This document shows positions 11,858-52,029 of a stretch of DNA of 64,000 nt, one piece after another. The first letter of the stretch is position 1. Each line of letters starts with the position of its first letter. The DNA is from Escherichia phage D6. Position numbers and translations under genes: made by a program. A model generated the notes under the pieces. That model was given only the letters and a program-made list of their open reading frames with translations, ran no database searches and was not told the DNA's origin. The stretch lies in sequence record NC_050154.1, one strand, 5' to 3'.

Positions 11858-11867
11858 GCTAACCTCA

Positions 11868-13298
11868 TTACGGGTAAGAAATGCTGAACGTTGAAGATTT
11901 CACGTCAAGATAAATGAAGTCATTAAAGTAAACTGCATCTTTCATATTTTGTATTGTTATGTCATAAGAGAGAAACATATCCAGCGACTCTATTACTCGC
12001 CAAATATCTTTAACTTTTACCTGTGCATAACATTGCTGAGAATCATCATCACTCTGTAGTAATAAACTGAATGATGACGAATCACGACCAAAATTTTCTT
12101 CCAACGCTGCTTTAATAGCATTTTGAGCGTCGTCTATCAGAACATTTTTACGTGCAATACCTGTAAATTTTATAGTAAATGGTTGTTCATTTGTATCTAC
12201 ATACTCAAACCGCTTGTTCAACTCATTTGGAACATTCTCTAGAGCTTTCAGTATTTCTGATTTTAGCTGAGCCTGGCTTACACCTGGCTTATGTCCGCAA
12301 AAGAAAATCTTGTTGATGTTTCGAACGTCAAACCCAGTTATTTTCTCTTGCAACGCTTCGCCCCAAACGTTCAACCATGAAGTTCCATGAACAACATTCT
12401 GAATGAATTGGCGATAATCACCGCCCCATACCACTTGTTCATCGTATGCAACATAATACTGAGCACGATTTCGAGTTTCTTCTGTAGTTTCCATACCACT
12501 ACCACCGGTAATGATCGAATCAGTTTTAAACTCTAGTGACTCCACATATTGAGCGATATTTCCAGCCGGTTCTAACTTTTGTCCTTCAGCCAAAGTATAG
12601 TCGCCAAGGCTAGCCATAACATCGATTCGAACCTGACAGCCTGCTGGAGGCATCATACCCATAGAACCATCACCAAACTTGACTCCAAGTTGTTCTGTAG
12701 GTTTATATGCCAATGAATAGTGCTTACTCTTGTCTCTGGACATTCTAAATAATGGGTTATATGTCCATTTTTCTTCTACGCCATCTGTAATAACATAAAC
12801 ATCCAGGCTAGAGACTTCTTTTGTTAATTCTCTGGAAAGCAACAATGTCAGAAATAAAGTTTCCTTCTCAATATCAAATGTAACGCTAACAGCTTCATGC
12901 TGTTTAGTTTCTACGCCAGAAACAGTTCCTCCAGCAGGAATTACAACACTGTTAATAATTGCCAAAGGTGTTTGGTCATTGGCAAGCAATTCAGCCCCGG
13001 CTGGTAACGTAATATCCCGATCAGTTTTATTGGTTATAGACGTTGTTCCGTATGAAGCACTAACAAATCGCCCTACGTAGCTACGGTCTTCAGCAACCGC
13101 TAAAATACTTGAGCGGCGCGTAGCCGTTGAAATAAGTCCCTCAGTGAGGCCGCGGCTTGCAAATGTACGGGCAATATAAATAAGCTGTGATCCGAATATA
13201 GCGTGCATCTGCACAAACTGACTATTTACAAATCGTGACCACCATGTGTTTTCATTTAACTTGGCGTTAAATTTGTCCAGTAATTCTGTAATCGTCAC
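11868..13298 (-). CDS. putative baseplate protein (BplA-like position)
   Basis: 476-aa ORF, operon context. Confidence 0.45.
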   Translation of the reverse strand: MTITELLDKFNAKLNENTWWSRFVNSQFVQMHAIFGSQLIYIARTFASRGLTEGLISTATRRSSILAVAEDRSYVGRFVSASYGTTSITNKTDRDITLPAGAELLANDQTPLAIINSVVIPAGGTVSGVETKQHEAVSVTFDIEKETLFLTLLLSRELTKEVSSLDVYVITDGVEEKWTYNPLFRMSRDKSKHYSLAYKPTEQLGVKFGDGSMGMMPPAGCQVRIDVMASLGDYTLAEGQKLEPAGNIAQYVESLEFKTDSIITGGSGMETTEETRNRAQYYVAYDEQVVWGGDYRQFIQNVVHGTSWLNVWGEALQEKITGFDVRNINKIFFCGHKPGVSQAQLKSEILKALENVPNELNKRFEYVDTNEQPFTIKFTGIARKNVLIDDAQNAIKAALEENFGRDSSSFSLLLQSDDDSQQCYAQVKVKDIWRVIESLDMFLSYDITIQNMKDAVYFNDFIYLDVKSSTFSISYP

Positions 13299-13669
13299 GC
13301 GCCCACCCCACTTGATTTCTGCATAACAATATCCATGCTCCCACCTTTCGCATAAAAACTAATTAATAAAGAATCTTCAGAAATTGATGTGCAACGAATC
13401 CCCTGCACATCCAAACCTGGCAAGTCTTGTCGTAGTTTTTTCATCATTCTCCCTTCAATAGCCACTTCAACTATGTGCGAAGTTTCAGAGCCGAATGGTT
13501 CATGCTTAAATTCTTCCATTGGATTCCCCCAAGAGGGTAAACCATAAACACTCCCTTCAGGGGTTCGTAGCCACTCGTCAAGTCGGGCCATCCATGCTGC
13601 GGAACTTCCTTCTGCAATAATGACACCGCTCTCATTCGTTTGAAGTCTTGCGTCTATTTCATAAAGCAT
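13295..13669 (-). CDS. putative morphogenetic protein (PmgA-like position)
   Basis: 124 aa, coupled to neighbours. Confidence 0.45.
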   Translation of the reverse strand: MLYEIDARLQTNESGVIIAEGSSAAWMARLDEWLRTPEGSVYGLPSWGNPMEEFKHEPFGSETSHIVEVAIEGRMMKKLRQDLPGLDVQGIRCTSISEDSLLISFYAKGGSMDIVMQKSSGVGA

Positions 13670-16600: not shown

Positions 16601-17457
16601 TTTTTCCCCTTTTCTACCCATTCTTTAAGAGATTCTGCTTTACCTGTGATCTCTTTAGTTATGTCGTACATGCCTCGAGCCGCCATCCATAACGGCCCAC
16701 CAGCACCGACACCAGCTGCATTTGTTAAAGACTCTTCACTGGAAGACTGATTGCCATCTACCCCCATAATGGAACCTAGCTTTCTGAGAAAGCCAGCTTG
16801 TAATTTTGCGTCGGCTTTACGTGCGTTCTGCAATTCTTTTTTTCTGGCTATATCCTCATTGCTTTTTTGGGATACAAAACGTCCATTACTATCCCGCAGC
16901 GGGCCTTTTAGACTTTGGGGGGATTGTGGTTCAAGAGGGGCTGAATTAGCCGCTACCGGTATAAAACCGTCCGATTTTCGGATGGTCTGACGTGATTGCA
17001 CGGAGCGAACACTTTCTGGTGTGTTCGTTGCAACGATAGCGCGGTCCACGGTTTGGTTTATCGGTGCCCTTTCCTTTTTAGCAGGGAGACGTTTTTTATA
17101 TGGGTTAGTTTGGGCATCTCTAACGCTATCAGATGTACTTTGCTCGTAGTCTTTACGCCTGCGTGATAGTCTGTTGCTAACTCTGCCTTGCTTTTCGTCC
17201 TGTTGAGTTATGGTGCCTACCCCAGAAAGAATGGCGTCTTTTACCTCAGCAAGAGCTTTAAGTTCGTTTGTGCTCGCCTCCTGAATAGCGTCAATTATTG
17301 CGATACGGTCTTTATTCTCTTTCAAAATAACCTCTCTTTTACCAGCGCGATCAACGTTTCCCGGCTTGAGCTTTGTATTTTTCTTCCAGGGCTTTTGACA
17401 TATGGAGTGCTCGCCATTGCGGTAATTGTTCAACGTCGCTAACGGGCTGATATCCAT
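13675..17457 (-). CDS. large structural/injection protein, Sit-like (tape-measure-like)
   Basis: 1260 aa, low-complexity Ala/Gly/Ser/Lys-rich, with a globular domain near residues 630-760. Confidence 0.65.
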   Translation of the reverse strand: MDISPLATLNNYRNGEHSICQKPWKKNTKLKPGNVDRAGKREVILKENKDRIAIIDAIQEASTNELKALAEVKDAILSGVGTITQQDEKQGRVSNRLSRRRKDYEQSTSDSVRDAQTNPYKKRLPAKKERAPINQTVDRAIVATNTPESVRSVQSRQTIRKSDGFIPVAANSAPLEPQSPQSLKGPLRDSNGRFVSQKSNEDIARKKELQNARKADAKLQAGFLRKLGSIMGVDGNQSSSEESLTNAAGVGAGGPLWMAARGMYDITKEITGKAESLKEWVEKGKKETSTSKAISPVITYPAAVNSQKATSAKAFNNAVETKSAQAVEEQTKILQTNDNKIIDGLENVSDEIVKLRKSVSSGNKFGLSDLWKNRASRRNKINIGDQTGKNKRNKSKRKGRNLGKKALSVGEKVAAGSAAAGTGVGAAKVVKNEISKPKDVSTISDTSKGIAKETKNTAKAVKSAGVVAEDATIKTGEAIAKKKTESVALKSAAKIGVKSAASTAARAVPIIGSLAMAGYDAIDGYTDTEAQKAAFGLSDDDAVSEQQKTAYATANVLDMGGLVSGATNLIGKGISALGFERAGEKLQNFDTGDIARGVNGAVDITKSVFGSLKDTFLSTDENTKQVKKAVEDGTKKTVDAIHSLGEQLQGGRDGEDGVGEHGYTSPAEFNAPTSNTIAADLNIGGSNAKNRNYRNNNLGNLVFANQEGATLEAPNAKGEQRFARFNTPEEGIRALANQVSSYYNGTSAAAGYQKLQTVSSIISKWAPPKENNTNQYIDNVSKYLGVSPNEKIDVSNPEVMTQLVRAIATKEGGNPAVNNEFIKNALGAFNTNTGRWEGQFSDETLARINKIQKENGGQLIARDSQYSVGRKIKYVNGKSPAQPVLNAVPTATQQPIEVAQYAQAVKKPQKTGNQSQPINPENVDVNTGSPSSLLERLIAINDSGVGNLFGGAATSLAGTSLGLIKDFASATSFGSISSLSEKAKGMDQALTEKISSLTGKSFGFQKASQVTDIRDALQKRPKAERDMPSVDLLSGVSSASESEKIPVNSRGIPVYDNGYKVIDGEDKGVLGSLFDSSLTGLKRISSAVLPAIGDNVSRLIGGVDGTGIVNDLVYQATGQNSTIARAISPLTRSAGSWLNNGIQQTADSIRGISNEANNAIFGSASAVQEPFLAMPPQLPTVTDLARSGIRQPLTTDTINNDPAMLKALDNICSILNDLLNVNKNNTKGDPDKVVKTSQPQPRPRASTTINDPSLDALLED

Positions 17458-39404: not shown

Positions 39405-40204
39405 TCGATCACTCCGTTTTGAGTCGTATCAAAATTCCTGGCAGGTATGCAGTAGTAAAGCGAACCAACATGCTGTGTGCCGTAGCTAAAAATACGGTGC
39501 ACGTACCACCAGCGGCGCGCTACGCCGTTTACCATCTCTTCATTCCATTCAAGAATTGAGCCGACGGGGACGTTATTTGCTGCAATACGCAGAATCAGAA
39601 CATCATCGGTTAAGCCATCCTGCTCACCGTCTGCGTCAATCGCATGGAAAGAGTCACGCCCGTCAGGGTTATCCAGCACATAAACGATTTCAGGTTCCTG
39701 GTAAGTCAGTTCGCGTTGGTTGTTATCCAGTTCAGTGAATGACTCTTCTCCTGTTTCGTCGCTGACTACCCCATATGTGCCAACATCTGGTCGATATAAG
39801 AGAGCCTGAAACGCGTCTGGGCTGGATTCAATAATCAGCATCCAGTCTGCGCGGATTTGGTCGTTAAAGGCTTTATGCCCGTTATAGCGTGCTTTTAGCT
39901 GTGGAGTTGATTCTCTGCCAGCCAGGGAAGGTGGAAGTATGGCTATATCTGATTCGCCAGCATCCGGAGTAAGGCCACCGTTGCTATCAGCAAAATTATC
40001 ATGGCTATCAGCTTTGGCGGCGGGTTGCTCTTCCAGAATGCTGAATGAATCCGAACCGGTATTGCCATGTTCCGGCGCGCCTCCTGCATTCACTTCAATC
40101 GGCGCTGGCGTTTCTCTCTGCGTGCTGTCATGTTCTGACTCCTTACTTGCCAGGTTTGCATCGTCAGCAAACCATTCGTCAAAACGGCCCATAAGCATCC
40201 TCAA
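39401..40204 (-). CDS. hypothetical acidic protein
   Basis: 267-aa ORF; an AAATCACAA-type box lies ~40 bp upstream (40242..40257). Confidence 0.5.
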   Translation of the reverse strand: MRMLMGRFDEWFADDANLASKESEHDSTQRETPAPIEVNAGGAPEHGNTGSDSFSILEEQPAAKADSHDNFADSNGGLTPDAGESDIAILPPSLAGRESTPQLKARYNGHKAFNDQIRADWMLIIESSPDAFQALLYRPDVGTYGVVSDETGEESFTELDNNQRELTYQEPEIVYVLDNPDGRDSFHAIDADGEQDGLTDDVLILRIAANNVPVGSILEWNEEMVNGVARRWWYVHRIFSYGTQHVGSLYYCIPARNFDTTQNGVIE

Positions 40205-40354
40205 AGGTCGATCTGTCAGGTATCGAAAGGAAGATTTTCGGGAGATTGTGATTTTGGATGAAGGAGGGGGAATTCATAAAATGCACTTGCGCACAGTGCA
40301 ACGGTGCGCTATAGTTATGGCATTCGGTAATCATCACGGAGGATCAAATGACTA

Positions 40355-40657
40355 ATGACCAAAAAAATTAACATAAAGGATTTCAGGGATGCGTGGCTTG
40401 ATGATTTTTTTGAATTTTCAACACCACATAGAAAGATACCTCCTGATATTCATATGACATTGTCACGGAAGTTGGACATTATCAATGCCGCAACTACCTG
40501 TAAGGATTTAAGATCACCACCAGGTAATCGGTATGAGGAACTGTCAGGGAAGCTAAATGGCTATTCATCAGTAAGGGTGAATAAGCAATATAGGTTAATT
40601 TTTAAGTGGGTTAACGGAAAGGCCGAGGACTTGTATCTCGACCCTCACAAATACTAA
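40355..40657 (+). CDS. higB: HigB-type toxin (RelE/ParE superfamily, plasmid killer)
   Basis: 100 aa, C-terminal YRLIFKWVNGKAEDLYLDPHKY; toxin-first order with an HTH partner. Confidence 0.75.
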   Translation: MTKKINIKDFRDAWLDDFFEFSTPHRKIPPDIHMTLSRKLDIINAATTCKDLRSPPGNRYEELSGKLNGYSSVRVNKQYRLIFKWVNGKAEDLYLDPHKY

Positions 40658-40727
40658 AACAGATACCCGGTTACGGACCGGGTTCTGACCAGAGTCCACT
40701 TAATACGCACGCTAGTAAGGGCAAAAA

Positions 40728-41066
40728 ATGAAACAGGCAACCAGAAAACCGACGACCGTAGGTGATATCCTGCTGTACGAATACCTGGAGCCGTTAGAGC
40801 TGAAGATCAACGAGTTAGCAGAAATACTTCATGTTCATCGTAACACCGTAAGTGCTCTTGTTAATAATAATCGTAAGCTAACGATGGATATGGCATATCG
40901 CCTGGCAAAAGCATTCGATACTTCTGTAGATTTTTGGATTAATCTTCAGACCGCAGTAGATCTGTGGGAAGTCGAAAATGATATGCGCGTTCAGGAAGAG
41001 TTAAGTCGTATCAATACTGCTGAAAAATTTATTTCTCAGCGTAACCTGAATAAAAAAGCAGCCTGA
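40728..41066 (+). CDS. higA: HigA antitoxin (XRE HTH)
   Basis: GDILLYEYLEPLELKINELAEILHVHRNTVSALVNNNRKLTMDMAYRLAKAFDTSVDFWINLQ. Confidence 0.8.
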   Translation: MKQATRKPTTVGDILLYEYLEPLELKINELAEILHVHRNTVSALVNNNRKLTMDMAYRLAKAFDTSVDFWINLQTAVDLWEVENDMRVQEELSRINTAEKFISQRNLNKKAA

Positions 41067-41085
41067 TATAGTAAAACACATACAA

Positions 41086-41110
41086 AAAGCCCACTTAGCA
41101 AGTGGGCTTT
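41086..41110 (+). terminator. intrinsic terminator after higA
   Basis: AAAGCCCACTTAGCAAGTGGGCTTT. Confidence 0.7.
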
Positions 41111-41122
41111 CCTTTGTAATTA

Positions 41123-41482
41123 ATGAACATTAAACCTATCCGTACAGAACAAGATTATGAGGCCGCACTGCGTGCGGTCGAACCGATGTTCGATAACGAA
41201 CCGGAAATGAATACTCCGGAAGGTGATTTCTTTGAGGTTATGAGTCTTCTCATTGAGGAGTACGAGAAGAAACATTACCCAATTGAGCCACCATCACCTA
41301 TTGAGGCCATTAAATTCCGTATGGAACAGCAAGGGCTGACCGTGAAGGATCTGGAACCGGCGATTGGTAAGTCAAATCGTGTTTACGAAGTGCTAAATGG
41401 GACACGAAATTTGACGTTACCTATGATTCGCCGTTTACATTCCCAGTTTGGCATTCCTCTTGAAAGCTTGGTTGGTATTTGA
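41123..41482 (+). CDS. second HigA-like antitoxin-type HTH protein, no adjacent toxin
   Basis: 119 aa; C-terminal HTH IGKSNRVYEVLNGTRNLTLPMIRRLHSQFGIPLESL resembling E. coli HigA-type antitoxins. Confidence 0.65.
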   Translation: MNIKPIRTEQDYEAALRAVEPMFDNEPEMNTPEGDFFEVMSLLIEEYEKKHYPIEPPSPIEAIKFRMEQQGLTVKDLEPAIGKSNRVYEVLNGTRNLTLPMIRRLHSQFGIPLESLVGI

Positions 41483-41544
41483 GTTTGGCGGTCTGGATGA
41501 CCGCTATTTTCATAAAATAGATATTAGAAATCACGGTAGTTTAT

Positions 41545-42273
41545 ATGAATACAGATTCATCAACAGAAAAATTGACTGAAAATGATCTAATCAAAGTATC
41601 TTTTGGAGATGCCATAAAAGACAAGCTTTTTAATAAAGTGTTTGCATATATATTAATTTCTTTTCTAATTATTAATTGGAAAGATATACTAATATTGATG
41701 AAGTCAAAGGATGATATCCTATATACTTTATCTGTAACATTTGTTGGAGGTAAGATTCCTCTAGTTTATGAAGGCGTTTTGTCTCCTTGGCTTTATCATT
41801 TTTGCTTGCCATTTATTTTTGGAATTATTGCATCAATTGCAGCTCCGATTGTCACTCTTTGCGTATCAAAGCTAACAAGTAAAATATATACAGAGATAAG
41901 GTATTTGGATGCCGACATGGATCAAAATAAAAGAAAGGCGTTGCAAATAAAAGAGACTGAAATAATAAAAAGTATTAATGATACACAATTCAACAAAAGA
42001 ATTATGGATGAAAATAAAAATGAACTTGAGAGATTGCTTAGGCAGCAAAAAGAGATTATGGCGGCAATAAAGTTATTATATGATGATGTTGGAGTTATCA
42101 TTGAGCTTTTTAAAAGTAGAGGGGTTGGTATTGACTCCCCAGAAAAGTTATATGATTTTGTAATGGCAATAAAGAAGACTTCGCTTTATAATGGCGATCA
42201 TGATTTTAATAAATTGGTTGCTGATATTTCAAATTTATTTGATAAAACGGAAATTGATTTTTCAAAAAGATGA
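41545..42273 (+). CDS. AT-rich hypothetical membrane protein (2 TM segments plus coiled-coil C-terminus)
   Basis: 242 aa, visibly lower GC than flanks; 62 bp after the orphan HigA-like gene. Confidence 0.65.
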   Translation: MNTDSSTEKLTENDLIKVSFGDAIKDKLFNKVFAYILISFLIINWKDILILMKSKDDILYTLSVTFVGGKIPLVYEGVLSPWLYHFCLPFIFGIIASIAAPIVTLCVSKLTSKIYTEIRYLDADMDQNKRKALQIKETEIIKSINDTQFNKRIMDENKNELERLLRQQKEIMAAIKLLYDDVGVIIELFKSRGVGIDSPEKLYDFVMAIKKTSLYNGDHDFNKLVADISNLFDKTEIDFSKR

Positions 42274-42274
42274 A

Positions 42275-42297
42275 AGCCTAGCCTAGGCAGCTAGGCT
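42275..42297. terminator. hairpin between convergent genes
   Basis: AGCCTAGC...GCTAGGCT palindrome. Confidence 0.5.
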
Positions 42298-42306
42298 ATG
42301 TGTAGT

Positions 42307-43500
42307 TTATGCTTTTTTTACATACTCCATGAACATTTTTTCAGCTTGTGCTGGTGGTGTTCCAGCCATGACAAGCGCATCAATGAACGCCTGCTTCTTC
42401 AGTGCGAACTGATCGGCAAGGCGTTGCTGAAGCTCCTTGTTTTTCTGTTTCTCACGTTGCAAGGCCGCTTCTTTTGCTGCCGCCCGTTTTTTCTGTGCAT
42501 CTGACAACTTTCTGGCCTTGGTCAATTGGTCACGTAGTTTGTCGATCTTGCCGTTGTCCTTTGCCAGTTTTGTACTTAAAGCTGCCTGGCGCTTCTGATA
42601 GAGCCTCCATTCGCGTTTGGCGGCTTCAACGTTCGTTTTACTGCTACGATTGCGATTAAACTCCTTCTCGTCTTCTTTTGAGAAGTGTTTGGTTGTACGG
42701 CGGCGATCGTCACCAAATGCAATTTGCGTTGCAGCCTTTTGTAGCGCACGAGCAATACTCATTTGCCAACTGGCGGACTGTAACCGCGTCATTGAGTGGA
42801 TCACGTGTTTACAGGCGACGCCTTGCAGCTTCGGGTTGCGAACTTTTGGATAGGCGTATTCTTTTGGCGGTGCCAGGGCAAAGTTACCCGCAGTGGCGAT
42901 GTAACGATACCAGTATTGATGACGACCACAGTCACAATCGAAAGACACTCGCCCGGCGCACAGTGATTTAGTGATTTTGAGAGCTGATTTATCGTCTTCT
43001 GCGATGTCATCAACCATCTGATCCCATTCTTCAAAGCGTATCCGGACGATATGGTGCTGGTGGACGGATATATCCGATGCTTCTACGCGGATATTAATCA
43101 CATTGTGGCGAAGAGATACGGGTGTAGCTCTTTTGATACCAGATCCGTCATCCACGGCGTTATTTGCACGCTTAATATCGATTGCCTGGCTGGATGCCAC
43201 CAGCTGGGCGTATGTGATGCCAGCCGTCTTGCTGTCATATTTTTCGCGCGTTTTACTCCGTAGCTTTTCGAAACCTTTCAGGTCGTCTCGCGTGAAGAAC
43301 GTGCCGCCTTTTTTCTTCCCTAACTTGAGAATATCTTCGGCGGATTTGTTCCTCAGTCTACTTGGCGTCAGCGTCCGGTGAGCTTGTCGGCGCTTACGGG
43401 TTTGTTCTTTCCTGATAAGCTCGAATAAACGCGTGAAGTCCTTAGAGGACAGGCCGTCAGTGATATAGCGCCCGTCCTGGTTTTTCAGGAAATCAGGCAT
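42307..43500 (-). CDS. hypothetical protein with SWIM-type zinc finger and Lys/Arg-rich coiled coil
   Basis: 397 aa; CDCGRHQ...GVACKHV (CxC...CxH). Confidence 0.55.
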   Translation of the reverse strand: MPDFLKNQDGRYITDGLSSKDFTRLFELIRKEQTRKRRQAHRTLTPSRLRNKSAEDILKLGKKKGGTFFTRDDLKGFEKLRSKTREKYDSKTAGITYAQLVASSQAIDIKRANNAVDDGSGIKRATPVSLRHNVINIRVEASDISVHQHHIVRIRFEEWDQMVDDIAEDDKSALKITKSLCAGRVSFDCDCGRHQYWYRYIATAGNFALAPPKEYAYPKVRNPKLQGVACKHVIHSMTRLQSASWQMSIARALQKAATQIAFGDDRRRTTKHFSKEDEKEFNRNRSSKTNVEAAKREWRLYQKRQAALSTKLAKDNGKIDKLRDQLTKARKLSDAQKKRAAAKEAALQREKQKNKELQQRLADQFALKKQAFIDALVMAGTPPAQAEKMFMEYVKKA

Positions 43501-43822
43501 TTTCTATCTCCGGTTCCGCGCTCGCGTAATCACGGATCTTGTTCCTCAGCCATGCCACATCAGGAAGAGTTAACGTGGTCCCGGCGGGCATTTCTTCCAT
43601 TTCTGACTCATGGCCCACCAGCACCCGGAATACCCAGCGCAAATCTGCATTGCCATACGCCCTGTAGGCTGCAAGGTCTGAACGATATACTTCATCAATC
43701 TTTATCGTGTACTGGAAATTATCAGAGTGATACTCCGATACCCGCTTAATCATTTCCTGGTGAAACAGCGCACGAAAAATATCGTCTTCAATGTACCTAT
43801 CGTCGAGTCTGCTATAGCCCAT
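43493..43822 (-). CDS. hypothetical protein
   Basis: 109-aa ORF coupled to the downstream gene. Confidence 0.5.
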   Translation of the reverse strand: MGYSRLDDRYIEDDIFRALFHQEMIKRVSEYHSDNFQYTIKIDEVYRSDLAAYRAYGNADLRWVFRVLVGHESEMEEMPAGTTLTLPDVAWLRNKIRDYASAEPEIENA

Positions 43823-44015
43823 AACAAAGCCTCTCAGTCATAACCTGGGGGAAACTGTATGCAGGGTGTGAAATGCGAGAAACAGACAGGCCACCAGTTC
43901 AGGGGGATGTGGTTCATAAATCCCCTCACTGGTGACAAGTGACTTTCATTAATCTTTATGCGTGGGCCAGCTTCATTTGCTGGCATTAGATTAAAAATTA
44001 AACGGAGTGAATGAC

Positions 44016-44150
44016 ATGGATGTTATCTTCGAATTATTAATGCTAATTGATCTGTTTATGAACGCTTCATTGACCACGCAAATACTGGCGTCAATATTTT
44101 TGTTACTCTTCTACCTGGTATTGAGGGAGTTAACAAAGCTACTAATGTGA
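44016..44150 (+). CDS. small hydrophobic peptide (44 aa)
   Basis: Own translation MDVIFELLMLIDLFMNASLTTQILASIFLLLFYLVLRELTKLLM with GGAG RBS; not in ORF track. Confidence 0.35.
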   Translation: MDVIFELLMLIDLFMNASLTTQILASIFLLLFYLVLRELTKLLM

Positions 44151-44804
44151 TCAAAGTATCACGGTATCTTCATCAACTTCTTTCCCAGCCAGTGACTTTG
44201 GCTGGGAGGTGCCTGCTTTAACTTTTTCATGCCCAATAATGGAAAGGAACGAAGCGAGTATGCCTGTTTTTTGCTCTTTCTCGACTGTACCGATCATCTG
44301 CTCTACGTAATCCGCACTGGCAACGTTGTGGTATACGGTCGCGTAGCAACACAGGATCATCAGAATATGCTCCGGCCTGATATCCTGCCAGTTCACCCTG
44401 TAGACTTCTTCTCCGTTACCGTTGTATTCGGTATCAACGATAGAGTCGGGGATTTCGAAAGCACCTTTGTTATTTTGCGGCAGGGATAATAGTTTCTGGA
44501 GTTTTAACTCTCTGTATCTTTCCATCCCGACGATGATTGCTGCTCTACCATCGGCATGACGGGTCTTGAGAGTCACCTGGCTTGCTCCGGTGCCAGCGGA
44601 GATCGTTGGCGTAATTTCGTCTACTAGAACCTTGAATTTGCTTTTCCGCAGGGCTGCTATAGCTGGAGGAATTTTTTGCTTTTGCTCCAATGCTGACGCA
44701 GGAAGGGGTTTTACTTCGTTAATAATGAGAGCACCGTCTTTCAGTATTGCAGTGAGCATTTGAGGCTTGCTGGTGGTCAGGCTGAATATTGCGATCTTTT
44801 CCAT
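44151..44804 (-). CDS. hypothetical protein
   Basis: Start moved to MEKIAIF with GGAGGAAGG RBS. Confidence 0.55.
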   Translation of the reverse strand: MEKIAIFSLTTSKPQMLTAILKDGALIINEVKPLPASALEQKQKIPPAIAALRKSKFKVLVDEITPTISAGTGASQVTLKTRHADGRAAIIVGMERYRELKLQKLLSLPQNNKGAFEIPDSIVDTEYNGNGEEVYRVNWQDIRPEHILMILCCYATVYHNVASADYVEQMIGTVEKEQKTGILASFLSIIGHEKVKAGTSQPKSLAGKEVDEDTVIL

Positions 44805-44822
44805 TGTCCTTCCTCCACGGAT

Positions 44823-44856
44823 GACGGATACAAAAAAAGGCCGCACATGGCGGCCT
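44823..44856 (-). terminator. intrinsic-terminator-like hairpin in the 5' leader of the 44804 gene
   Basis: Minus strand: AGGCCGCCATGTGCGGCCT followed by TTTTTTT, between the late box and the RBS. Confidence 0.5.
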
Positions 44857-44948
44857 GCTTTGGCGTTATGACTCCCTACCGCGCTTCGGCTGAAAGTTAA
44901 TCGTCAAAAGAACCTTCAACGGGAGCCGTTAGCGCGATGGATTATGTG

Positions 44949-44963
44949 CAGTTTGTGATTTCC
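44949..44963 (-). promoter_or_regulatory. candidate late-promoter box (GGAAATCACAAACTG on minus strand)
   Basis: Identical 15-mer to the one at 10964; followed by CATAAT. Confidence 0.5.
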
Positions 44964-45149
44964 AAAATAGTGTCAACCACTTTTTGTGGATTTTATTTTT
45001 TGACAGAAATTTGGCCTAAATCATGTTGATTTGGCTGATTATTTTTATAACATAAAAGTCATTTTGATTGCATGAAGGACGGTGCAGTGAAGTTAATGGT
45101 TTTAGGGACCGCGCTCGCGGCTAAGATGGTAAGGTATGGAGTTAATGAA

Positions 45150-45983
45150 ATGTTTTTTATAAAAAATGGAAAAAGATTTTCCTCAACAATACTAGCTACT
45201 GTTGTTGCTCTTTTTGTTCCCACACTCACCTTTGCTTATGATTTTAGCAAAATTGACTGCAATTCCCCTAAAACTAGGCAGATGTTAATCGATGATTATA
45301 ATGAACTGCTGAAGGACGAGCAGGAAGCAATCTCTGTAATTGATGCTTATAATCAGATCAATGAGATAAGAGAAAACAATAAGCTCCAATGCCTGGGAAC
45401 GTATGAATTCTCAGATGGAAGTGCGCTTAGGGTTAGATATAAGTTATATTTAAATAGCCTCGGCACACCCATATATGAATTTGCTCCAGTTGAGGAATTA
45501 ACGCAAGATGATGTAAGCGCATCTATTCATAATTCCCCTGCAACTCCTGCAAGCATGGCTGGACATGATAAAAAAAATAATGGTGAAACGTATGCCTGTA
45601 AGGTGGCTGTAACTTACAAGGGGGAGCGTTCTAACTATATGGGGGATTCCGGAACATGGGATCGTGTGATTACTGACTATGGCACTTATTTTTCATGGGA
45701 TTTGCCACGCGGAAACCGAGGCAACAGCACAGGTCAGGATGCTTTTAGTGGCATGGACGAATCAAAGCCTGTATTAGAAAATCAGCTAGTGAGAAAGGAA
45801 ACTGAAAAAGATGGTAGCGTGGTTGATGAATTTAGGACTGATGTAAGTTATGGGGAAAAACAACCAGTTCATAAGTTTGTATATGCTCGTAGAATAAAAC
45901 CTACAGGCATGAGAGAGTATTATGTTACGGATTTAACAGACAAGCGGGCGTTTATGTTTCTGAATTGTCAGAGAGATTCGTGA
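45150..45983 (+). CDS. hypothetical secreted/periplasmic protein
   Basis: Signal peptide MFFIKNGKRFSSTILATVVALFVPTLTFA; moderately AT-rich; start moved to the RBS-supported ATG. Confidence 0.6.
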   Translation: MFFIKNGKRFSSTILATVVALFVPTLTFAYDFSKIDCNSPKTRQMLIDDYNELLKDEQEAISVIDAYNQINEIRENNKLQCLGTYEFSDGSALRVRYKLYLNSLGTPIYEFAPVEELTQDDVSASIHNSPATPASMAGHDKKNNGETYACKVAVTYKGERSNYMGDSGTWDRVITDYGTYFSWDLPRGNRGNSTGQDAFSGMDESKPVLENQLVRKETEKDGSVVDEFRTDVSYGEKQPVHKFVYARRIKPTGMREYYVTDLTDKRAFMFLNCQRDS

Positions 45984-46022
45984 TTGACATAGCAGGCTTA
46001 CTATTAAGCCTGCTTTTTGGCT

Positions 46023-46382
46023 TTACTCGGTAATAGTTTTGCAGTTGTTTTGATTTAATGACAATCCTAGCTTGCTAGCAGCCAACTCATTTTCTGTGTG
46101 AGAACCAGCAAAAATGAAGCCTTGTTTTATCTTATTTACGGTGAAATATTTATTATACATGAACGCCCAGATAAATGAGGCAATCCACGGGCCAATTCCG
46201 GCTGTGAGGAATGCCAGTATCAGCATCACTACAAATACCCCAATAAAAGTTATAAAGTCTTTCCTGAACAAAGCTGGAAAAGCACCAAACAAGAATGTAG
46301 TCCAGGAAAAACCATAAAAACCGGTGATTGATTCGCCAGTTTGAGGGTTTTCAAGTTTAATTTTAGTAGCCACGATTATCAT
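46023..46382 (-). CDS. small inner-membrane protein (2 TM)
   Basis: 119 aa, GFSWTTFLFGAFPALF...FIGVFVVMLILAFLTAGIGPWIASFIWAF. Confidence 0.55.
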   Translation of the reverse strand: MIIVATKIKLENPQTGESITGFYGFSWTTFLFGAFPALFRKDFITFIGVFVVMLILAFLTAGIGPWIASFIWAFMYNKYFTVNKIKQGFIFAGSHTENELAASKLGLSLNQNNCKTITE

Positions 46383-46518
46383 CCTTTTACATAAAAAACA
46401 TATAGTTATAGTGCTGTGTGAGATTCTAATGTTACTAATTTACACTTTGTAATGCAATTAAATAACTTTAGGCAGTGGAAGTAACTATTCGTGGCAGACT
46501 ATCGTTAAGATCTTTCAA

Positions 46519-46803
46519 TTATGGTTGCTGTAAGTGGAGGGGAACAGCCTGTTCTATCATCTCGCGTATCAAGCCAACTTCAAGTAGTTCCTCGTATTCC
46601 CAGTATCTGTTTGTCACCAGATCCAGGCTGGCTATGACCTTGTGCCGGTCATTCGGCATAGCCAATTTTTCTGCTATAACCATCAGTGAAAACTCTTCAT
46701 CCAGTAGAATTTGATAGCAGTTTTTTGATAGTTCCACTTCCCTTATGAGACTGAAACGTCGCTGGATTGTGGCAGCAGAGTAAGTGAAATCTATTTTCTT
46801 CAT
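46519..46803 (-). CDS. hypothetical protein
   Basis: 94-aa ORF. Confidence 0.45.
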   Translation of the reverse strand: MKKIDFTYSAATIQRRFSLIREVELSKNCYQILLDEEFSLMVIAEKLAMPNDRHKVIASLDLVTNRYWEYEELLEVGLIREMIEQAVPLHLQQP

Positions 46804-46835
46804 CGTGCGGAGAATCCGGTTATTTAGTAGTTAAA

Positions 46836-46854
46836 GCCCCGGACAGGCCGGGGC
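46836..46854. terminator. hairpin after the ant-like gene
   Basis: GCCCCGGACAGGCCGGGGC. Confidence 0.6.
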
Positions 46855-46862
46855 AACAGTAA

Positions 46863-47804
46863 TTAACTAACAATCCAGTCCGTAGCAACAACATCCTCTG
46901 GAGCTAAATCAATCGCATGGATTTTCCCATCCCGGATAGTGCGCCAGTGCTTTCGTGATCCACCTTCGGGCCACACCCATACACCTTCAGGCCAGGATGC
47001 TCGACGGCATACGATTGCATAGCCTGTTTTAATCCTCTCTCTGGCGGTATGCAACGACAGGTTTGCCTTTGGACTTTCAGGCACAGGATGGTGGATTGCC
47101 TGAAACATCCCCATCTTTGGATGATACCAGCGTTTATTGCGTGGTTCTGCCTCCGACATCACCTGCTTAAAGGCTTTCCGGAAGGGGGCCAGGGCCACAA
47201 TGGAGCGTTGCGCAAGCAAACCATCGGGAGTTAAAAACTCATGCGTATCGGTGGGAATCCGGTAAGCGTTAACCAGGTTTCGGCATTTGGCTTCAGTCAG
47301 GCCACATTTCGCCGCCAGCTGGCGGTAGCCAATGTAGCCTTCCGGAATATTGCCTTTCTTTATTTGCTCGAGTGTTTCAGCGACCATCGATACTTGTGCT
47401 GATACCTCGGCTACCTGGGCATTTACGGCGTTGATCCGGCGTTCATGCTCAAGATGCATTTGCGCCATTTCAGCCAGAATTTCGGCTTTTGATTTTAACT
47501 GTACCCGGGCATTCTCCAGTTCGCGCCAGCGGTCCACCAGCCGGGCGGTGAATTCGGGAGAGAGCTGCGCGACGACAACAATGCTGTCTCGTTTGCCTTG
47601 CTCGCCTTCGAAGACATAGACCGGATCTTTGACAACCTTCCCTAAGTTATTGATTCTTTCGACGAACTCATTTTGAGTTTCTCGGATGACACCGCTAGCC
47701 ATCATATTGCGAATGGTACGTAAAACATTGCCGTGACGACTACCAACTAACTCTGCAATATCTAGGCTACTCATTGTCGCTTTTTGAGAGATGGACAGAT
47801 TCAT
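46863..47804 (-). CDS. antirepressor-like protein (Rha/Ant-type N-terminus)
   Basis: 313 aa; N-terminal SSLDIAELVGSRHGNVLRTIRNM; sits downstream of an icd-like ORF and a c4-like RNA. Confidence 0.55.
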   Translation of the reverse strand: MNLSISQKATMSSLDIAELVGSRHGNVLRTIRNMMASGVIRETQNEFVERINNLGKVVKDPVYVFEGEQGKRDSIVVVAQLSPEFTARLVDRWRELENARVQLKSKAEILAEMAQMHLEHERRINAVNAQVAEVSAQVSMVAETLEQIKKGNIPEGYIGYRQLAAKCGLTEAKCRNLVNAYRIPTDTHEFLTPDGLLAQRSIVALAPFRKAFKQVMSEAEPRNKRWYHPKMGMFQAIHHPVPESPKANLSLHTARERIKTGYAIVCRRASWPEGVWVWPEGGSRKHWRTIRDGKIHAIDLAPEDVVATDWIVS

Positions 47805-48019
47805 CAGCGCACCTCCACGCAGTTCATCGGCAGATTCCAGTAATTGAGGATCTCCATCGCATCAAGAGTGAAGCGAGCAGCAAAAATGCAGGGTTCTTCG
47901 GGAAGGTATGAGCGCGCCTCTGATTCGGTAGCAGCCATGACGCAGATATACAGGTGCTTTTGGCAGGAATAGAAACGCCAGATAAATTCAGAATGAGTTG
48001 GGGTAGGGATAGTAGCCAT
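47804..48019 (-). CDS. Icd-like small protein
   Basis: 71 aa, stop overlaps the ant-like start; AAAAGGAGG RBS. Confidence 0.45.
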   Translation of the reverse strand: MATIPTPTHSEFIWRFYSCQKHLYICVMAATESEARSYLPEEPCIFAARFTLDAMEILNYWNLPMNCVEVR

Positions 48020-48079
48020 ATTGGCAGCCTCCTTTTGCTAATTTAAGGAGCTACCGCGTGAGGTCTCAATCTCAATGGC

Positions 48080-48155
48080 GGTAGCACTGGCTGGGTTGAG
48101 ACTACCGGCGCAAAAGGGAACCGGCCTGCCTTTCGGCAGCCCAGCCAGCACTACC
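48080..48155 (-). ncRNA. candidate c4-type antisense regulatory RNA (~76 nt)
   Basis: 16-bp closing stem with two G-U pairs enclosing a GAAA-looped hairpin; a loop GUCUCAA is complementary to two UUGAGAC sites, one just before the icd-like RBS. Confidence 0.4.
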
Positions 48156-48206
48156 ATTGATCTTGGAGCTATACGCTACGTATGGCTGTGCGATGGCATG
48201 ACACAA

Positions 48207-48228
48207 AAAAAGACGCTTTCGGCGTCTG
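48207..48228 (-). terminator. intrinsic terminator upstream of the c4-like RNA
   Basis: Minus strand GACGCCGAAAGCGTC followed by TTTTTTT. Confidence 0.6.
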
Positions 48229-48817
48229 TGTCGCCTTTTGCATTATCCGGGGTCTCAATCCCGGCACCCGTTTTTCTAAGGTGCCGTAGAAATATACCCC
48301 ACGATAATGCCAGGGCGCAACAGTCAGTATTTTATGCTTTGGCGGATTTCTTCCGGGCTTGCTTGCAGGCGTAGGCCATTGCTTTAGCTTTCACTTCATC
48401 CAGCTTCCCGGTGATCACTTCTTTTCCGAGAGTGACAAACCAGTCATAGCAACCGCCAGTGATGTTCTGGATTTGAAAGTTGAGGTAGCGAACTGTCATT
48501 TTGACCCCCCCAGCGCGAGTAAAGAATGCAGATTATCGCGTGAGTGGCGGACAACGAGTGATGGGAAAAGACAGTAGCTGTTCATAGTGTAGTGACTCCT
48601 TGCTTTCGGAGCCGCCATCGACTGTTCCACGGTCTGGTGGCGGCGCAATAAAGGCTGGAACACCGTGAGTCAACGGGGGCTTTTCAGCCACCTATATTGC
48701 ACCGCCATAGGTATAGCGGCGGCAATAATACGAAAAACTAAACAGTTTGTCTCAAAAAGTTGACCGGTGTGCCAATCGGTAGTGAATGTACATCGGAGAA
48801 ATTTACAATTCAACTTA

Positions 48818-48839
48818 AAATGTTAGAAAACTAATTTAT
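48818..48839. promoter_or_regulatory. candidate C1-type operator upstream of the immI-like unit
   Basis: AATGTTAGAAAACTAATTTAT, 17/19 identical to the motif at 62787; overlaps the ref-like stop. Confidence 0.5.
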
Positions 48840-49409
48840 CAATTCAATCGCCATCTGATACAACGTCATTTCATCGGCATTGTGCCGCATGAAATCTGCT
48901 TTTCCGCCTATTTTTCCGTCAGCATGAACAGGGACCAGCCAGGGATATTGTTCTCGGACCTCGGCTGGCGCTGCGTACTGGTGGTGCCATTTACACAAAG
49001 GGAGGACATATTTATGCGCGTTCTCTGCCGTTCTCCCGAAGATATGGTGCAGGGATACCACTGGGCTATGTTGCCCGTGAATATGGCAGGCAATGCAGGG
49101 GAGAGCACCGATAGCGGTCTGTATCCGGCGTTCATCGGCTGTGAGTGATCTGCCTTTCAGGCCGCGTGACGTGCGTGTTTTTTTGGACGGAGCGGATACA
49201 GCTTTATCTTTTCTCCGCTGTTCATATTGCTTTGCTTTTTCAATTTTCTTTTGCCGATATTCAGGCGATGCGGCTTTTTCTCTCGCTCGCTGCTGCTGGC
49301 GTTGAGCTTGTTGAAGGCACTTTGCCCTTTGTTCCTCTCGCCAGGCTGGGTCAGCCAATTTTTGCATGGCTTTTTGTCTCTGTTTCTCCCAATAGCTCTG
49401 TTTCTGCAT
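48831..49409 (-). CDS. HNH-type endonuclease with Lys/Arg/Gln-rich N-terminal extension (P1 Ref-like)
   Basis: 192 aa; CIACHIHGQHSPVVSLHHIFGRT...LPLCKWHH; operator-like motif ~60 bp upstream. Confidence 0.55.
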   Translation of the reverse strand: MQKQSYWEKQRQKAMQKLADPAWREEQRAKCLQQAQRQQQRAREKAASPEYRQKKIEKAKQYEQRRKDKAVSAPSKKTRTSRGLKGRSLTADERRIQTAIGALPCIACHIHGQHSPVVSLHHIFGRTAENAHKYVLPLCKWHHQYAAPAEVREQYPWLVPVHADGKIGGKADFMRHNADEMTLYQMAIELIN

Positions 49410-49472
49410 GATGGCTGCCTCTTACTTTTCAGCGATTTTTCTATGATTGATCAAAATGATTAGATATTCAAA

Positions 49473-49493
49473 ATTGATTTTCTAACACAAAAC
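49473..49493. promoter_or_regulatory. candidate C1-type operator in a divergent promoter region
   Basis: ATTGATTTTCTAACACAAAAC. Confidence 0.55.
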
Positions 49494-49681
49494 ATTAATA
49501 TCATTCCTGATAACTGTTTGGAGGACATGATGCTTATAGCTTTAAGTGCGATCCACCAGCCATCTGTGAATGAGATTGGCCTGTTCTATGTGTTGTTTTT
49601 CGGGGCGTTGGCGCTACTTGAGCTTGGTATTGAGCTTTTCGCAGTGCTTATGTTTTGCGTCACGATTTTGGGGAAATTTTG

Positions 49682-50293
49682 ATGGTGAAACGTGTTTTGA
49701 AAATTTACATCGCGGGGCCGATGACTGGTTATCCAGATTACAACCGTGCTGCGTTTAATGCGAAAGCGAGCGAGCTGATGGCTGAAGGGCATATCGTTCT
49801 GAATCCAGCTGTGTTACCTGGTGGCCTTTGTCAGAGTGAATACATGGATATTTGCCTGGCAATGGTGCGTTCTGCTGATGCGATCTACTTGCTCAATCGA
49901 TGGGAGGAATCGATTGGTGCTCGTGCAGAGCACGCGCTGGCTGAAAAGCTGGGGCTGACTGTAATTTATGAGTCACCAACCAACATTGAATGCCAGGTTG
50001 CTCCGCATATTTACCGGGAACTGGTCAATGCACTGTGTGATATCGCTGCTGTATATCACGGCACAGAACAGCTTCGTGAGCGTTTAGCCCATACCATTTC
50101 CTATTACCTGTCTTTATCTCATGAGCACAAGCTCCGCCAGAAGGTAATGATCAAATTTATCATGAGGTTATCGAAATCCCTGGCAAACGCCGATCCAAAG
50201 AATCCATTACCGAAAGAGGCAATGAATTACCTGAAGTCCTGCAACGTTGTTTCTGAAGATGGCGTGCTTTTGGTTAGAAGGAGTTCTGCGTGA
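49682..50293 (+). CDS. DUF4406-like protein with C-terminal extension
   Basis: KIYIAGPMTGYPDYNRAAF N-terminus; C-terminal HIYRELVNALCD...GTEQLRERL module also present in the 56427 ORF. Confidence 0.6.
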   Translation: MVKRVLKIYIAGPMTGYPDYNRAAFNAKASELMAEGHIVLNPAVLPGGLCQSEYMDICLAMVRSADAIYLLNRWEESIGARAEHALAEKLGLTVIYESPTNIECQVAPHIYRELVNALCDIAAVYHGTEQLRERLAHTISYYLSLSHEHKLRQKVMIKFIMRLSKSLANADPKNPLPKEAMNYLKSCNVVSEDGVLLVRRSSA

Positions 50294-50607
50294 GCTGGCG
50301 GGGATGGGGAAGGGCAGAAATCATGATACTCCGCCAGTGCGCCGGGACTATGACAGTCGAGAGTATTGGGAGGCTGATCGGGCGTACCGGTAGTGCTGTC
50401 AGAACCAAAGCGCGGCAACTGCGGATCTGCATGATTCTGAAAGGAGACTTTCACCCGTCAGCCAAATACCGGCAGGGCGATATAGAACTGGCACGGCAAC
50501 TTCATCGGTGTGGTGTTCCCCGCCGTGAGATCGCGGAAAAACTCGAAATGCCCCTAGGCATGATTAATCAGTACGTTTATTTCGAAAGGAGAGTGTATGA
50601 AGTCTGA
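50290..50607 (+). CDS. putative HTH DNA-binding protein
   Basis: 105-aa ORF coupled to the upstream gene. Confidence 0.5.
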   Translation: MSWRGWGRAEIMILRQCAGTMTVESIGRLIGRTGSAVRTKARQLRICMILKGDFHPSAKYRQGDIELARQLHRCGVPRREIAEKLEMPLGMINQYVYFERRVYEV

Positions 50608-50953
50608 AGGTTTAACGCCCGCACAACTGGCAGAGCGTAACGCTGAGTATGTAACGGAAATTTCCCGACTTGAGAAAGCGTGTGCTGCGCTGGCGGCGGA
50701 GAATGCTGGGCTGAAACATGCAATGGCTGTAACTCTTGAGCATGTGTCGGTCACGGATGCAGGTCAGGCCGGAGTTGCTGCAATGATTATCAACGATGCC
50801 CTGCACCACAGCGAAACTCCAGCCACCGATGATTTTCTGGCTGAAGTACGTGCGCAGGGCGTGGAGATGTTTGCTGAGTGCGCATACACACTTGAACATC
50901 ATGATCACGCAGTAGCTTTTGCCGCTGAGCTTCGTACAGGAAATAAACAGTGA
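50597..50953 (+). CDS. hypothetical protein (paralogous module family)
   Basis: 118 aa; LAEVRAQGVEMFAE module similar to [13 protein letters not shown] in the next ORF. Confidence 0.5.
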   Translation: MKSEGLTPAQLAERNAEYVTEISRLEKACAALAAENAGLKHAMAVTLEHVSVTDAGQAGVAAMIINDALHHSETPATDDFLAEVRAQGVEMFAECAYTLEHHDHAVAFAAELRTGNKQ

Positions 50954-51618
50954 ATGAGATTTACTACCTGACGTTACGTGAACGTTATTCACCAAAACCA
51001 GCGCCTAAATGCTCTGTTTGTGGCGAGGAAATGTCAATGCAGCGCATATCTGGATCACATGTTGTTTATGCCTGTTCTGGCATGGAGGATGACGGATGCT
51101 TCAAAACTGGACGAACTTATGCTGACGAGCATTACAAAAAATCGCGCATAACAGTAGTTGATGATAGCGATCCTGATGTGATTGAACTGCTGGACGAGAA
51201 CGTGGAGATGGCTCTAACGCTTGAGAATCTGCGTGTTGAGCTGGAAGCCGCTAAAAAGTGTATTGCAGAGCTGGAAAGCAATTGCGGGGCGCTGGTGGCG
51301 GAATGCCAAAACAAAAAAGCAGCACTTGAGGAAATTCTTAGCCATCTCCCAATTAATCATCCAGATATAGACATCGCATGTGTAGCGAACATAGCTCATA
51401 ACAAATTAGGCGAGGCGAAAAGCACTACATCTGAAGCTTACCTTGTTGAAATACAGGCTCAGGGATTGGAGGCATTCGCTTTGACGATGCGCGATACCGG
51501 AGATGATCCATTTTTTGATTCCGTTGCTTCTGCTTGCGCGGATGCGGCTGACAGGTTCGCAGCCCTGCTTCGTAAAGGACAATCCTGCCTGCGCCCGAAC
51601 TTTGAAGGGAAAAGATGA
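50950..51618 (+). CDS. hypothetical protein with N-terminal Cys cluster and coiled coil
   Basis: 222-aa ORF, overlapping stop/start. Confidence 0.5.
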
Positions 51619-51938
51619 TGACCACATCGCATTCTGCAATTACCCAAGAAAAAGCCTTCAACATACTCGAACGACTAGAGACGCTCGCTACGGAGGAGGA
51701 TATATCCCCGGAGAAACTGGTTGAGTTCAGCCGTGTGATATTGCGTCGCAAGAACGATATGGAGCGGCTGACATCTGGCGCTCCATCCTTATCAGTCAGT
51801 CCAGCGCTTTATTGCAGCTTCTGCAACAAATCCCAGCACACCGTTAAAAAGTTAATTGCTGGGGACGCCGTTTTCATCTGCGACGAGTGTGTGGATGCGT
51901 GCAACAACGTTATCCGGGAAGAGGGCTTAAGAAAATGA
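51615..51938 (+). CDS. small protein with ClpX-type N-terminal zinc-binding domain at its C-terminus
   Basis: [39 protein letters not shown], near-colinear with the E. coli ClpX zinc finger as recalled. Confidence 0.75.
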
Positions 51939-52029
51939 ATGACGAATTTGACCGCTTTGAATTTTAACGGGGCGCACCGTCGCCCCGCATGGGAGGGGGA
52001 TACGATGAAAAAAGATGAGGCAGAATCCA

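Follow-up and report, generated by a model that had tools for sequence, protein, structure and literature searches.

The region at 45150-46382 of the DNA analysed here (a 64,000-nucleotide stretch of the Escherichia phage D6 record NC_050154.1, hereafter the window) lies in a variable accessory-gene ('moron') site between a mat-like gene and an immI-like operon. It contains the gene of a predicted exported protein of 277 amino acids, in which a homologue of SimB of phage P1 is joined through a disordered linker to a second domain that fits no described family, and the convergent gene of a predicted small inner-membrane protein. The best explanation, which we put forward tentatively, would be a moron slot of a D6-like element whose exported protein resides in the periplasm and prevents related incoming phages from delivering their genomes. 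Superinfection exclusion is a plausible role, by association only: it is proposed because the N-terminal domain belongs to a sim-operon family, because the gene is placed beside an immunity operon in a slot where secreted-protein genes are rapidly exchanged, and because SimB-like and Ltp-like proteins interchange beside relatives of the membrane protein.

Genomic context and composition

The 12 kb surrounding the region are 94-99.8% identical to non-mobilizable plasmids of ~90 kb from E. coli, Salmonella and Shigella, and 51 plasmids cover at least 80% of positions 40000-52000. The region itself is 100% identical to that of pYU39_89 (NZ_CP011430.1), from Salmonella Typhimurium ST213, with flanks at 98.6-99%; a megablast search with the region against the phage collection gave no match. 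Because of these plasmid matches, and since pYU39_89 has been described as a D6-like plasmid prophage (PMC6799933), the window is assigned by its sequence to the D6-like plasmid prophages of the pYU39_89 type.

On the left, the slot is bordered by a Mat-like gene (44151-44804, minus strand; phrog_1837), annotated in relatives as a 'maturation control protein'. On the right flank, and all of them on the minus strand, are a 94-aa gene located 3' of ant (46519-46803; phrog_7349), which is a separate module present or absent independently, a Rha-family antirepressor gene, ant (46863-47804; Pfam Phage_pRha and annotation of relatives), icd (47804-48019; annotation of relatives) and a C4 antisense RNA (48074-48161; Rfam, 76 bits). 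The annotations of related plasmids include mat, icd, a Rha-type ant and ref. The combination of C4 RNA, icd and Rha-type ant therefore identifies 46863-48161 as an immI-like operon, in agreement with the immI-like neighbour proposed in the initial annotation. Elsewhere in the window no sit (tape-measure) gene was recognised, and a 1260-aa ORF (13675-17457) had no Pfam match, and so no SLT.

The region had been singled out as visibly AT-rich, and this is reflected in the G+C profile, with 38.9% G+C at 45150-46382 versus 46.5% in the whole window (z = -2.45; sliding windows of the same length, sd 0.031); sliding windows as AT-rich as this one amount to 2.5% (2.5th percentile). The entire patch at 44901-46518 has a G+C content of 0.381, its intergenic stretches reaching 0.30-0.35, and is only moderately AT-rich; it is one of three such patches in the window, together with those at 40500-42500 (to 0.29, more extreme) and ~11000-13300. 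The 277-aa gene has a GC3 of 0.327 (z = -2.0), the third lowest among 48 ORFs of at least 150 aa; the membrane-protein gene has a G+C content of 0.378 but an ordinary GC3, 0.40.

The plus-strand ORF spans 45072-45983 and encodes 303 aa, or 277 aa if the ATG at 45150 is used, while the minus-strand ORF, of 119 aa, runs from 46382 to 46023. The 277-aa gene and the membrane-protein gene are convergent and 39 nt apart. Between them, a hairpin at 45991-46014 with a T-run on the plus-strand side only has the appearance of an intrinsic terminator of the 277-aa gene. A consensus scan that included 44901-45149 and 46383-46518 called no sigma-70 consensus promoter for either gene; weak candidates picked by hand are TTGATT-16-TAACAT at 45026-45053 and TTGCAT-17-TAACAT 5' of the membrane-protein gene. 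The latter gene lies 3' of the immI-like operon, in the same orientation, and is separated from the 94-aa gene by a 136-nt AT-rich spacer (46383-46518, minus strand; 30% G+C), which may provide a promoter of its own.

The exported protein

The ATG at 45150 is the likely start of the exported-protein gene (45150-45983, plus strand), because a ribosome binding site, GGAG (45138-45141), is found 8 nt ahead of it, the 276-position profile phrog_13054 spans residues 1-277 of the protein end to end, the RefSeq call in pYU39_89 (WP_223153460.1) corresponds to the same ATG, and several homologues start at the same residue. The 26 extra codons of the 303-aa ORF are the remnant of a deleted neighbour. 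In pF801-4 (L015), in the divergent metagenomic element L008 and in related plasmids, a secreted protein of 202-204 aa is encoded directly upstream, its GTG being equivalent to position 45087 of the window. The window retains this GTG, its ribosome binding site AAGGA (45075-45079) and signal-peptide codons to ~45123, and comparison of junction sequences places the deletion junction, GCGGCTA/AGAT, at ~45123-45129; homology to the alternative ORF1 stops within its signal-peptide codons (alignment A2). The upstream gene has been lost in the window from about codon 13 to its 3' end, leaving its signal-peptide start in frame with the 277-aa gene. The relic, the junction and the GGAG are contained in a plus-strand upstream region (44901-45149) that is common to all cassette variants of the slot.

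A Sec-type signal peptide is predicted at residues 1-29 (45150-45236, plus strand), judged from sequence features and hydropathy, as had been anticipated for a 277-aa plus-strand product. It reads MFFIKNGKRFSSTILATVVALFVPTLTFA, followed by YDF, with a basic n-region, a hydrophobic core of 15 residues and T-F-A at positions -3 to -1, and cleavage is predicted between TFA and YD. A comparable N-terminus is present in 37 of 37 aligned family members, and the signal-peptide region is disordered in AlphaFold models (pLDDT <60).

The rest of the protein consists of two autonomous modules joined by a disordered linker. The N-terminal one, a SimB-like domain (residues 30-116; 45237-45497, plus strand), is assigned by sequence as a homologue of P1 SimB: residues 31-116 show 52% identity to it over 86 residues (BLASTP, E = 8e-27), which covers essentially the whole mature SimB, and residues 29-116 match phrog_14329 with E = 1.4e-22. 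When 50,697 phage records were searched by tblastn, the only matches were in P1-type phages, on simB. The motif of the SimB family, D[FY]S..DCN ... L.C.G.Y.FSDG ... NSLG, and its two cysteines (Cys37 and Cys81) are kept in the exported protein (alignment A4). Members of this module are mostly stand-alone secreted proteins of ~105-120 aa. Neither SimA nor SimC has similarity to the exported protein.

The C-terminal domain (residues 146-277; 45585-45983 including the stop codon, plus strand) has no relative with a name and fits no described family in the searches done, which gave no family for either the exported or the membrane protein in Pfam (to E = 10), NCBIfam or PADLOC. No defence model of PADLOC-DB 2.0 was matched by the four proteins of the region, and a profile search against PDB sequences yielded chance-level matches only. 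The motif of the domain is T..C.V ... (H/R)GNRG(D/N)STG ... HK.VYA.R ... E(F/Y)YVTD.T ... NC, with invariant Cys150 and Cys273 and the (H/R)GNRG(D/N)STG stretch in a loop. The family of the exported protein is rare, with only 11 clusters among 5.8 billion proteins. In a profile search of 1.84 billion cluster representatives only 31 proteins were recovered, comprising stand-alone SimB-like proteins, stand-alone C-terminal domains, and C-terminal domains behind other N-terminal domains. The C-terminal module is alone in P0133, P0148 and P0150, and is elsewhere preceded by N-terminal regions of at least three different types (P0009-P0011 with P0132; P0135; P0142), P0009-P0011 sharing with the exported protein only this domain.

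Structure prediction with AlphaFold, from a 37-sequence alignment, gave a mean pLDDT of 82; values exceeded 85-90 for the greater part of each domain, and residues 117-141 were disordered. The linker (residues 117-145; 45498-45584, plus strand) is rich in Ser, Pro, Thr and Ala, has pLDDT values of 45-48, varies in length through indels (alignments A1 and A4) and evolves fast. In the models, the N-terminal domain has one helix packed on a four-stranded antiparallel sheet, and the C-terminal domain is all-beta and barrel-like; the putative fold likenesses are to cystatins for the former and to small barrels for the latter, for which the closed beta-barrels of Cap15, nitrobindin and lipocalin types would be candidate comparisons. 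One conserved cysteine pair per module (C37/C81 and C150/C273) would fit the oxidising environment of the periplasm.

Both genes are under purifying selection, according to dN/dS values calculated by the Nei-Gojobori method against four to six relatives. These are 0.17-0.22 for the whole exported-protein gene, with 0.11-0.24 for the SimB-like domain, 0.05-0.15 for the C-terminal domain and 0.3-0.4 for the linker (1.66 against L008, the most distant relative), and 0.05-0.28 for the membrane-protein gene. The relative FWSEC0003 has the exported-protein gene disrupted, split into two ORFs.

The small membrane protein

The minus-strand gene (46023-46382; phrog_4915) was initially annotated as a convergent 119-aa protein with two transmembrane segments. 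Its orientation and membrane-type character stand, but a length of 116 aa from GTG 46373 is likelier: the homologues start at MA(T/K) in 24 of 24 aligned sequences, equivalent to V4-A5 in the window, and AAGGA precedes this GTG by 8 nt, so that it is probably the real start. Hydropathy analysis revealed two hydrophobic stretches, strong at residues 41-72 and weaker at 23-39, and two or more transmembrane segments are plausible. The phrog_4915 family is large and strikingly conserved, with 46-87% identity, and extends from Enterobacterales to Alpha- and Betaproteobacteria; such conservation greatly exceeds what is usual for exclusion proteins. Some sources name its homologues DUF2628, and a Vibrio phage record labels its match as a PF10947 family protein, but this likeness comes from homologue names only, since the Pfam model PF10947 (DUF2628) did not match the membrane protein even at E = 10.

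Homologues are found in a variety of contexts. Some are alone in chromosomes, in the metF-ppc interval (two lineages) or beside usp in Cedecea; one occupies this slot in a D6-like plasmid of Raoultella, where the exported protein is absent; others are alone among early genes of virulent jumbo coliphages, or in Lactobacillus phages, being located in 3-SAC12 directly after the antirepressor gene. In two elements (L025 and L026) the order is RepL, a membrane protein 79% identical to that of the window and, after 10 nt, a stand-alone SimB-like gene, while in small Rop-type plasmids the gene 157 nt beyond the membrane-protein homologue encodes a secreted protein in which the Ltp repeat is present twice (PF07553, E = 5.5e-32). 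This recurrence of SimB-like or Ltp-like neighbours in three element types, the membrane protein being alone in other contexts, is the most suggestive new observation of this work. The membrane protein rather resembles a conserved protein of cells that mobile elements have captured.

A variable slot between mat and the immI-like operon

Using the region as query, 119 plasmids were matched, and 56 of the 119 contain it whole. Around 60 related plasmids match up to 45123-45129 only and have other content beyond this point, which in many of them is a two-gene cassette for secreted proteins of 202 and 130 aa; this cassette is present in 66 records, and its proteins have no similarity to SimA, SimB or SimC. 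The C-terminal domain of the exported protein was found in 59 of 72,556 plasmids, all D6-like and from E. coli or Salmonella records, with sizes of ~75-96 kb save one of 216 kb.

Junction mapping placed the left junctions at 44976 or 45129 and the right ones at 46459, 46521, 46533, 46831 or 48356. From this map it follows that gain and loss are independent for the exported-protein gene, the membrane-protein gene, the 94-aa gene and ant, and even for the immI-like operon as a whole. An 'island' behaving as a single unit, as the initial annotation implied, does not hold, since the 277-aa and membrane-protein genes assort independently among related plasmids. The possibility that they form an obligatory pair was likewise discarded, as each is found without the other in the same slot. 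The slot is a variable accessory-gene site remodelled through recombination and deletion instead of point mutation, module exchange being the source of its diversity. The sim region has been listed as one of eight hypervariable regions of P1-like elements (PMC9603915), and the neighbourhood of simB differs between related D6-like prophages (PMC6799933).

Discussion

Besides the sequence identity described above, P1 SimB (P1_gp042, 111 aa) and the exported protein share a Sec-type signal peptide, two conserved cysteines and a location adjoining the c4-icd-ant immunity operon, in a region variable among relatives. However, SimB is without the linker and the ~130-aa barrel domain, and its family consists of stand-alone proteins of ~105-120 aa, compared to 277 aa here. 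The simA and simC genes of the P1 sim operon (simA-simB-simC, beside immI) are absent from the window, and the arrangement is different, given that P1 sim genes diverge from the 5' end of c4-icd-ant whereas the window gene is beyond the 3' end and convergent with the operon. The three sim ORFs of P1 all have signal-peptide-like N-termini (3/3). SimC (264 aa), reportedly a processed periplasmic protein, has in common with the 277-aa protein that it is exported, of similar size and encoded beside immI, but there is no detectable sequence similarity between them; it is by sequence alone that SimC is set apart, and the reading of the 277-aa protein as a SimC homologue was ruled out by this absence of similarity. 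In the P1 record SimB is called a 'putative superimmunity accessory function', and SimC is annotated as superimmunity protein.

Two other systems are of interest for comparison. Ltp of Streptococcus phage TP-J34 (PF07553) is encoded by a prophage, secreted and located in the envelope, and it blocks the entry of DNA; a superinfection-exclusion family of lipoproteins has Ltp as its prototype (PMC3952083). In other elements an Ltp-repeat protein occupies the place of the SimB-like protein beside the membrane-protein homologue; Ltp is however a lipoprotein of Gram-positive hosts, and Pfam detects PF07553 repeats in neither protein of the window. In phage T4, Imm is a small inner-membrane protein, and a logic shared with Spackle and Imm can be proposed, i.e. 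a periplasmic protein plus a small inner-membrane protein acting against incoming DNA. This comparison is one of function only, as no homology was found between the T4 proteins and those of the window, whose best PHROG matches are families of unknown function.

According to the exclusion model, the signal peptide of the exported protein would be cleaved after export and the soluble form would stay in the periplasm, where it would hinder related incoming phages in delivering their genomes, at a step that follows adsorption, as has been reported for the sim region of P1. One of its domains could recognise a component of the incoming injection apparatus, e.g. the tape measure or its muralytic activity, for which Ltp and T4 Spackle, an exclusion protein of the periplasm that acts as inhibitor of the tail lysozyme, gp5 (PMC7677548), are precedents. 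The membrane protein would be a separate module, either blocking passage across the inner membrane or cooperating with the secreted protein. P1 Sim is cited as possibly keeping superinfecting phage DNA from the cytoplasm (PMC8546580). The initial suggestion of a superinfection-exclusion or envelope-modifying factor gains real, if indirect, support from the SimB homology, the immI-like neighbour and the Ltp-like and SimB-like neighbours of membrane-protein homologues, but it meets neither a SimC counterpart nor a match to any defence family. Counted against an exclusion role are the only putative function of SimB itself, these two absences and that of a called promoter, the presence of the membrane protein alone at conserved chromosomal sites and in virulent jumbo phages, the finding of each of the two genes without the other, and the disrupted exported-protein gene of one relative. 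The fact that sim genes are dispensable for P1 growth speaks neither for nor against such a role.

The alternative to be considered most seriously, although we regard it as rather unlikely, is lysogenic conversion, with the exported protein, the membrane protein or both altering the carrier, Salmonella or E. coli, in its envelope physiology, stress tolerance, adhesion or virulence and having no anti-phage role. The existence of the membrane protein as a conserved chromosomal gene in several Enterobacterales and other Proteobacteria, and of a stand-alone SimB-like orphan in a bacterial chromosome, would be in line with it, and accessory genes of pYU39_89 have been discussed as possible host-fitness functions (PMC6799933). 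Yet the exported protein is confined to the phage-plasmid lineage, judging from the exclusively D6-like plasmids that have its C-terminal domain and the 31 clusters in 1.84 billion, its sole named relative belongs to the sim operon, and the swapping of cassettes beside an immunity region is typical of genes for phage-phage conflict. The putative cystatin-like and small-barrel folds, on the other hand, are typical of inhibitors, and they could suggest a periplasmic immunity or inhibitor protein against an attack other than by phages (a colicin, a type VI secretion effector or a lysozyme), which seems to us clearly improbable.

A function in the element's own lytic cycle, such as the timing of lysis, envelope remodelling at release or help during injection, with the membrane protein expressed with the ant operon upon induction, is hardly more convincing. 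It would explain the position of the membrane-protein gene 3' of icd, ant and the 94-aa gene in the same orientation, the homologue that directly follows the antirepressor gene in Lactobacillus phage 3-SAC12 and those among the early genes of virulent jumbo phages, but many D6-like relatives that lack one or both genes keep their structural genes, P1 sim genes are non-essential, and the 136-nt AT-rich spacer parts the membrane-protein gene from the operon. That the genes are decaying, non-functional cargo is very improbable: the split gene of FWSEC0003 and the relic of a deleted neighbour in the window copy could be taken as signs of decay, but dN/dS is well below 1 for both genes in several pairs, nearly all of the ~59 carrier plasmids have an intact ORF, and both domains are modelled confidently. 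The exclusion reading is retained as the best explanation, with the reservations expressed above.

A bolder version of the exclusion reading, which we consider a long shot, would be a modular two-part block to DNA entry operating at the periplasm and inner membrane, in which the membrane protein has a swappable secreted partner (SimB-like, SimB-plus-barrel or Ltp-like) in phage-plasmids, small plasmids and proteobacterial chromosomal islets, in a manner similar to T4 Imm and Spackle. The barrel, with its GNRG(D/N)STG loop, would inhibit a muralytic or tape-measure component of D6- and P1-type tails.

The presence in pYU39_89 of a simB homologue, without simA and simC, was published in 2019 (PMC6799933), and the identification of a SimB relative is therefore already known in print. 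In the literature searched we did not find described the fusion of a SimB-like domain to an unclassified second domain that also stands alone, the delimitation of the two domain families and how rare they are, the deletion relic behind the 303-aa ORF, the junction map of the slot, or the finding of SimB-like and Ltp-like secreted proteins as neighbours of the membrane protein. Sim is not mentioned in a superinfection-exclusion review, and the citing papers, in the passages that deal with P1 sim exclusion, go back to work of 1982 and 1989 only. To our knowledge, the mechanism of exclusion by the P1 sim region is still not understood.

Phage-plasmids of the D6 and P1 types are common carriers of accessory genes in E. 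coli and Salmonella. Should no exclusion phenotype exist, the genes described here would constitute an ordinary accessory-gene cassette. The results indicate that the SimB part is an autonomous, predicted periplasmic domain that can join an unclassified domain which exists alone, and that SimB-like and exported-protein genes sit in a recombination hot spot where secreted-protein cassettes are swapped. Together with the neighbours of the membrane protein, these modular domains and the hot spot lead to concrete hypotheses for exclusion among phage-plasmids, and if the two-part entry block were true, it would offer the first mechanistic handle on the P1 sim region.

Probable recent exchange and alternative contents of the accessory-gene slot

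The stretch comprising the island (window 44850-46520) was identical to the Salmonella Typhimurium plasmid pYU39_89 (NZ_CP011430.1) across all 1671 nt, while 74 mismatches were found in the 5.3 kb around the island (98.6% identity). This difference in sequence conservation suggests that the island was recently exchanged or converted between backbones that have otherwise diverged. In other relatives, the slot between mat and the immI-like operon is filled differently. An alternative cassette in pTB423 (4739-5760) and in the divergent metagenomic element L008 (4382-4990) encodes two other proteins with signal peptides, of 202 aa, with a possible lipobox (AMLGC), and 130 aa, neither of which showed resemblance to SimA, SimB or SimC of phage P1. 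The entire immI-like operon is missing from pTB423. In the E. coli O45:H2 FWSEC0003 plasmid (1801-2642), the gene for the exported protein appears to be disrupted, since the annotation splits it into a 100-aa and a 142-aa ORF; the adjoining membrane gene is intact.

The intergenic region common to mat and the cassette contains an inverted repeat, AGTGTCAACCACT (window 44962-44986), which was unchanged in the alignment with four relatives and may serve as an operator or belong to a late promoter. On the other side of the slot, a match to the Hfq-binding small RNA isrK (Rfam, 59 bits; 48206-48284, minus strand) lies directly upstream of the C4 antisense RNA (48074-48161) of the immI-like operon.

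Membrane-protein homologues in other elements

In small Rop-type plasmids (L027-L030; e.g. L027, 4001-4885), the gene after a membrane-protein homologue (69% identity) encodes a secreted protein in which the Ltp repeat (PF07553) occurs twice, a Gram-negative Ltp-type protein carried by a ColE1-like plasmid. Another arrangement, in which RepL and the membrane protein are accompanied by a SimB-like protein of the stand-alone type, was found in L026 (4268-5732) and L025 (601-1894), beside selD, topB and gdhA-type genes; this islet looks like what is left, in a chromosome, of a lytic-replicon region similar to that of P1. Lactobacillus phage 3-SAC12 (2749-3833) has a distant homologue of the membrane protein immediately after an antirepressor gene, an order that agrees with that in the window (ant, then membrane gene).

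Other AT-rich patches

Two further AT-rich patches are present in the window. One of them includes a 476-aa ORF (11868-13298, minus strand; G+C 0.396); neither this ORF nor a 1260-aa ORF (13675-17457, minus strand) had a Pfam match. The other (40355-42273) is more extreme than the island, with G+C down to 29%, and harbors a toxin-antitoxin pair of the HigB/HigA type. It also encodes an HTH protein of 119 aa (41123-41482) and contains a 242-aa ORF (41545-42273; G+C 0.294) without a match in Pfam. Its content differs among relatives, and this patch looks like another accessory-gene slot.
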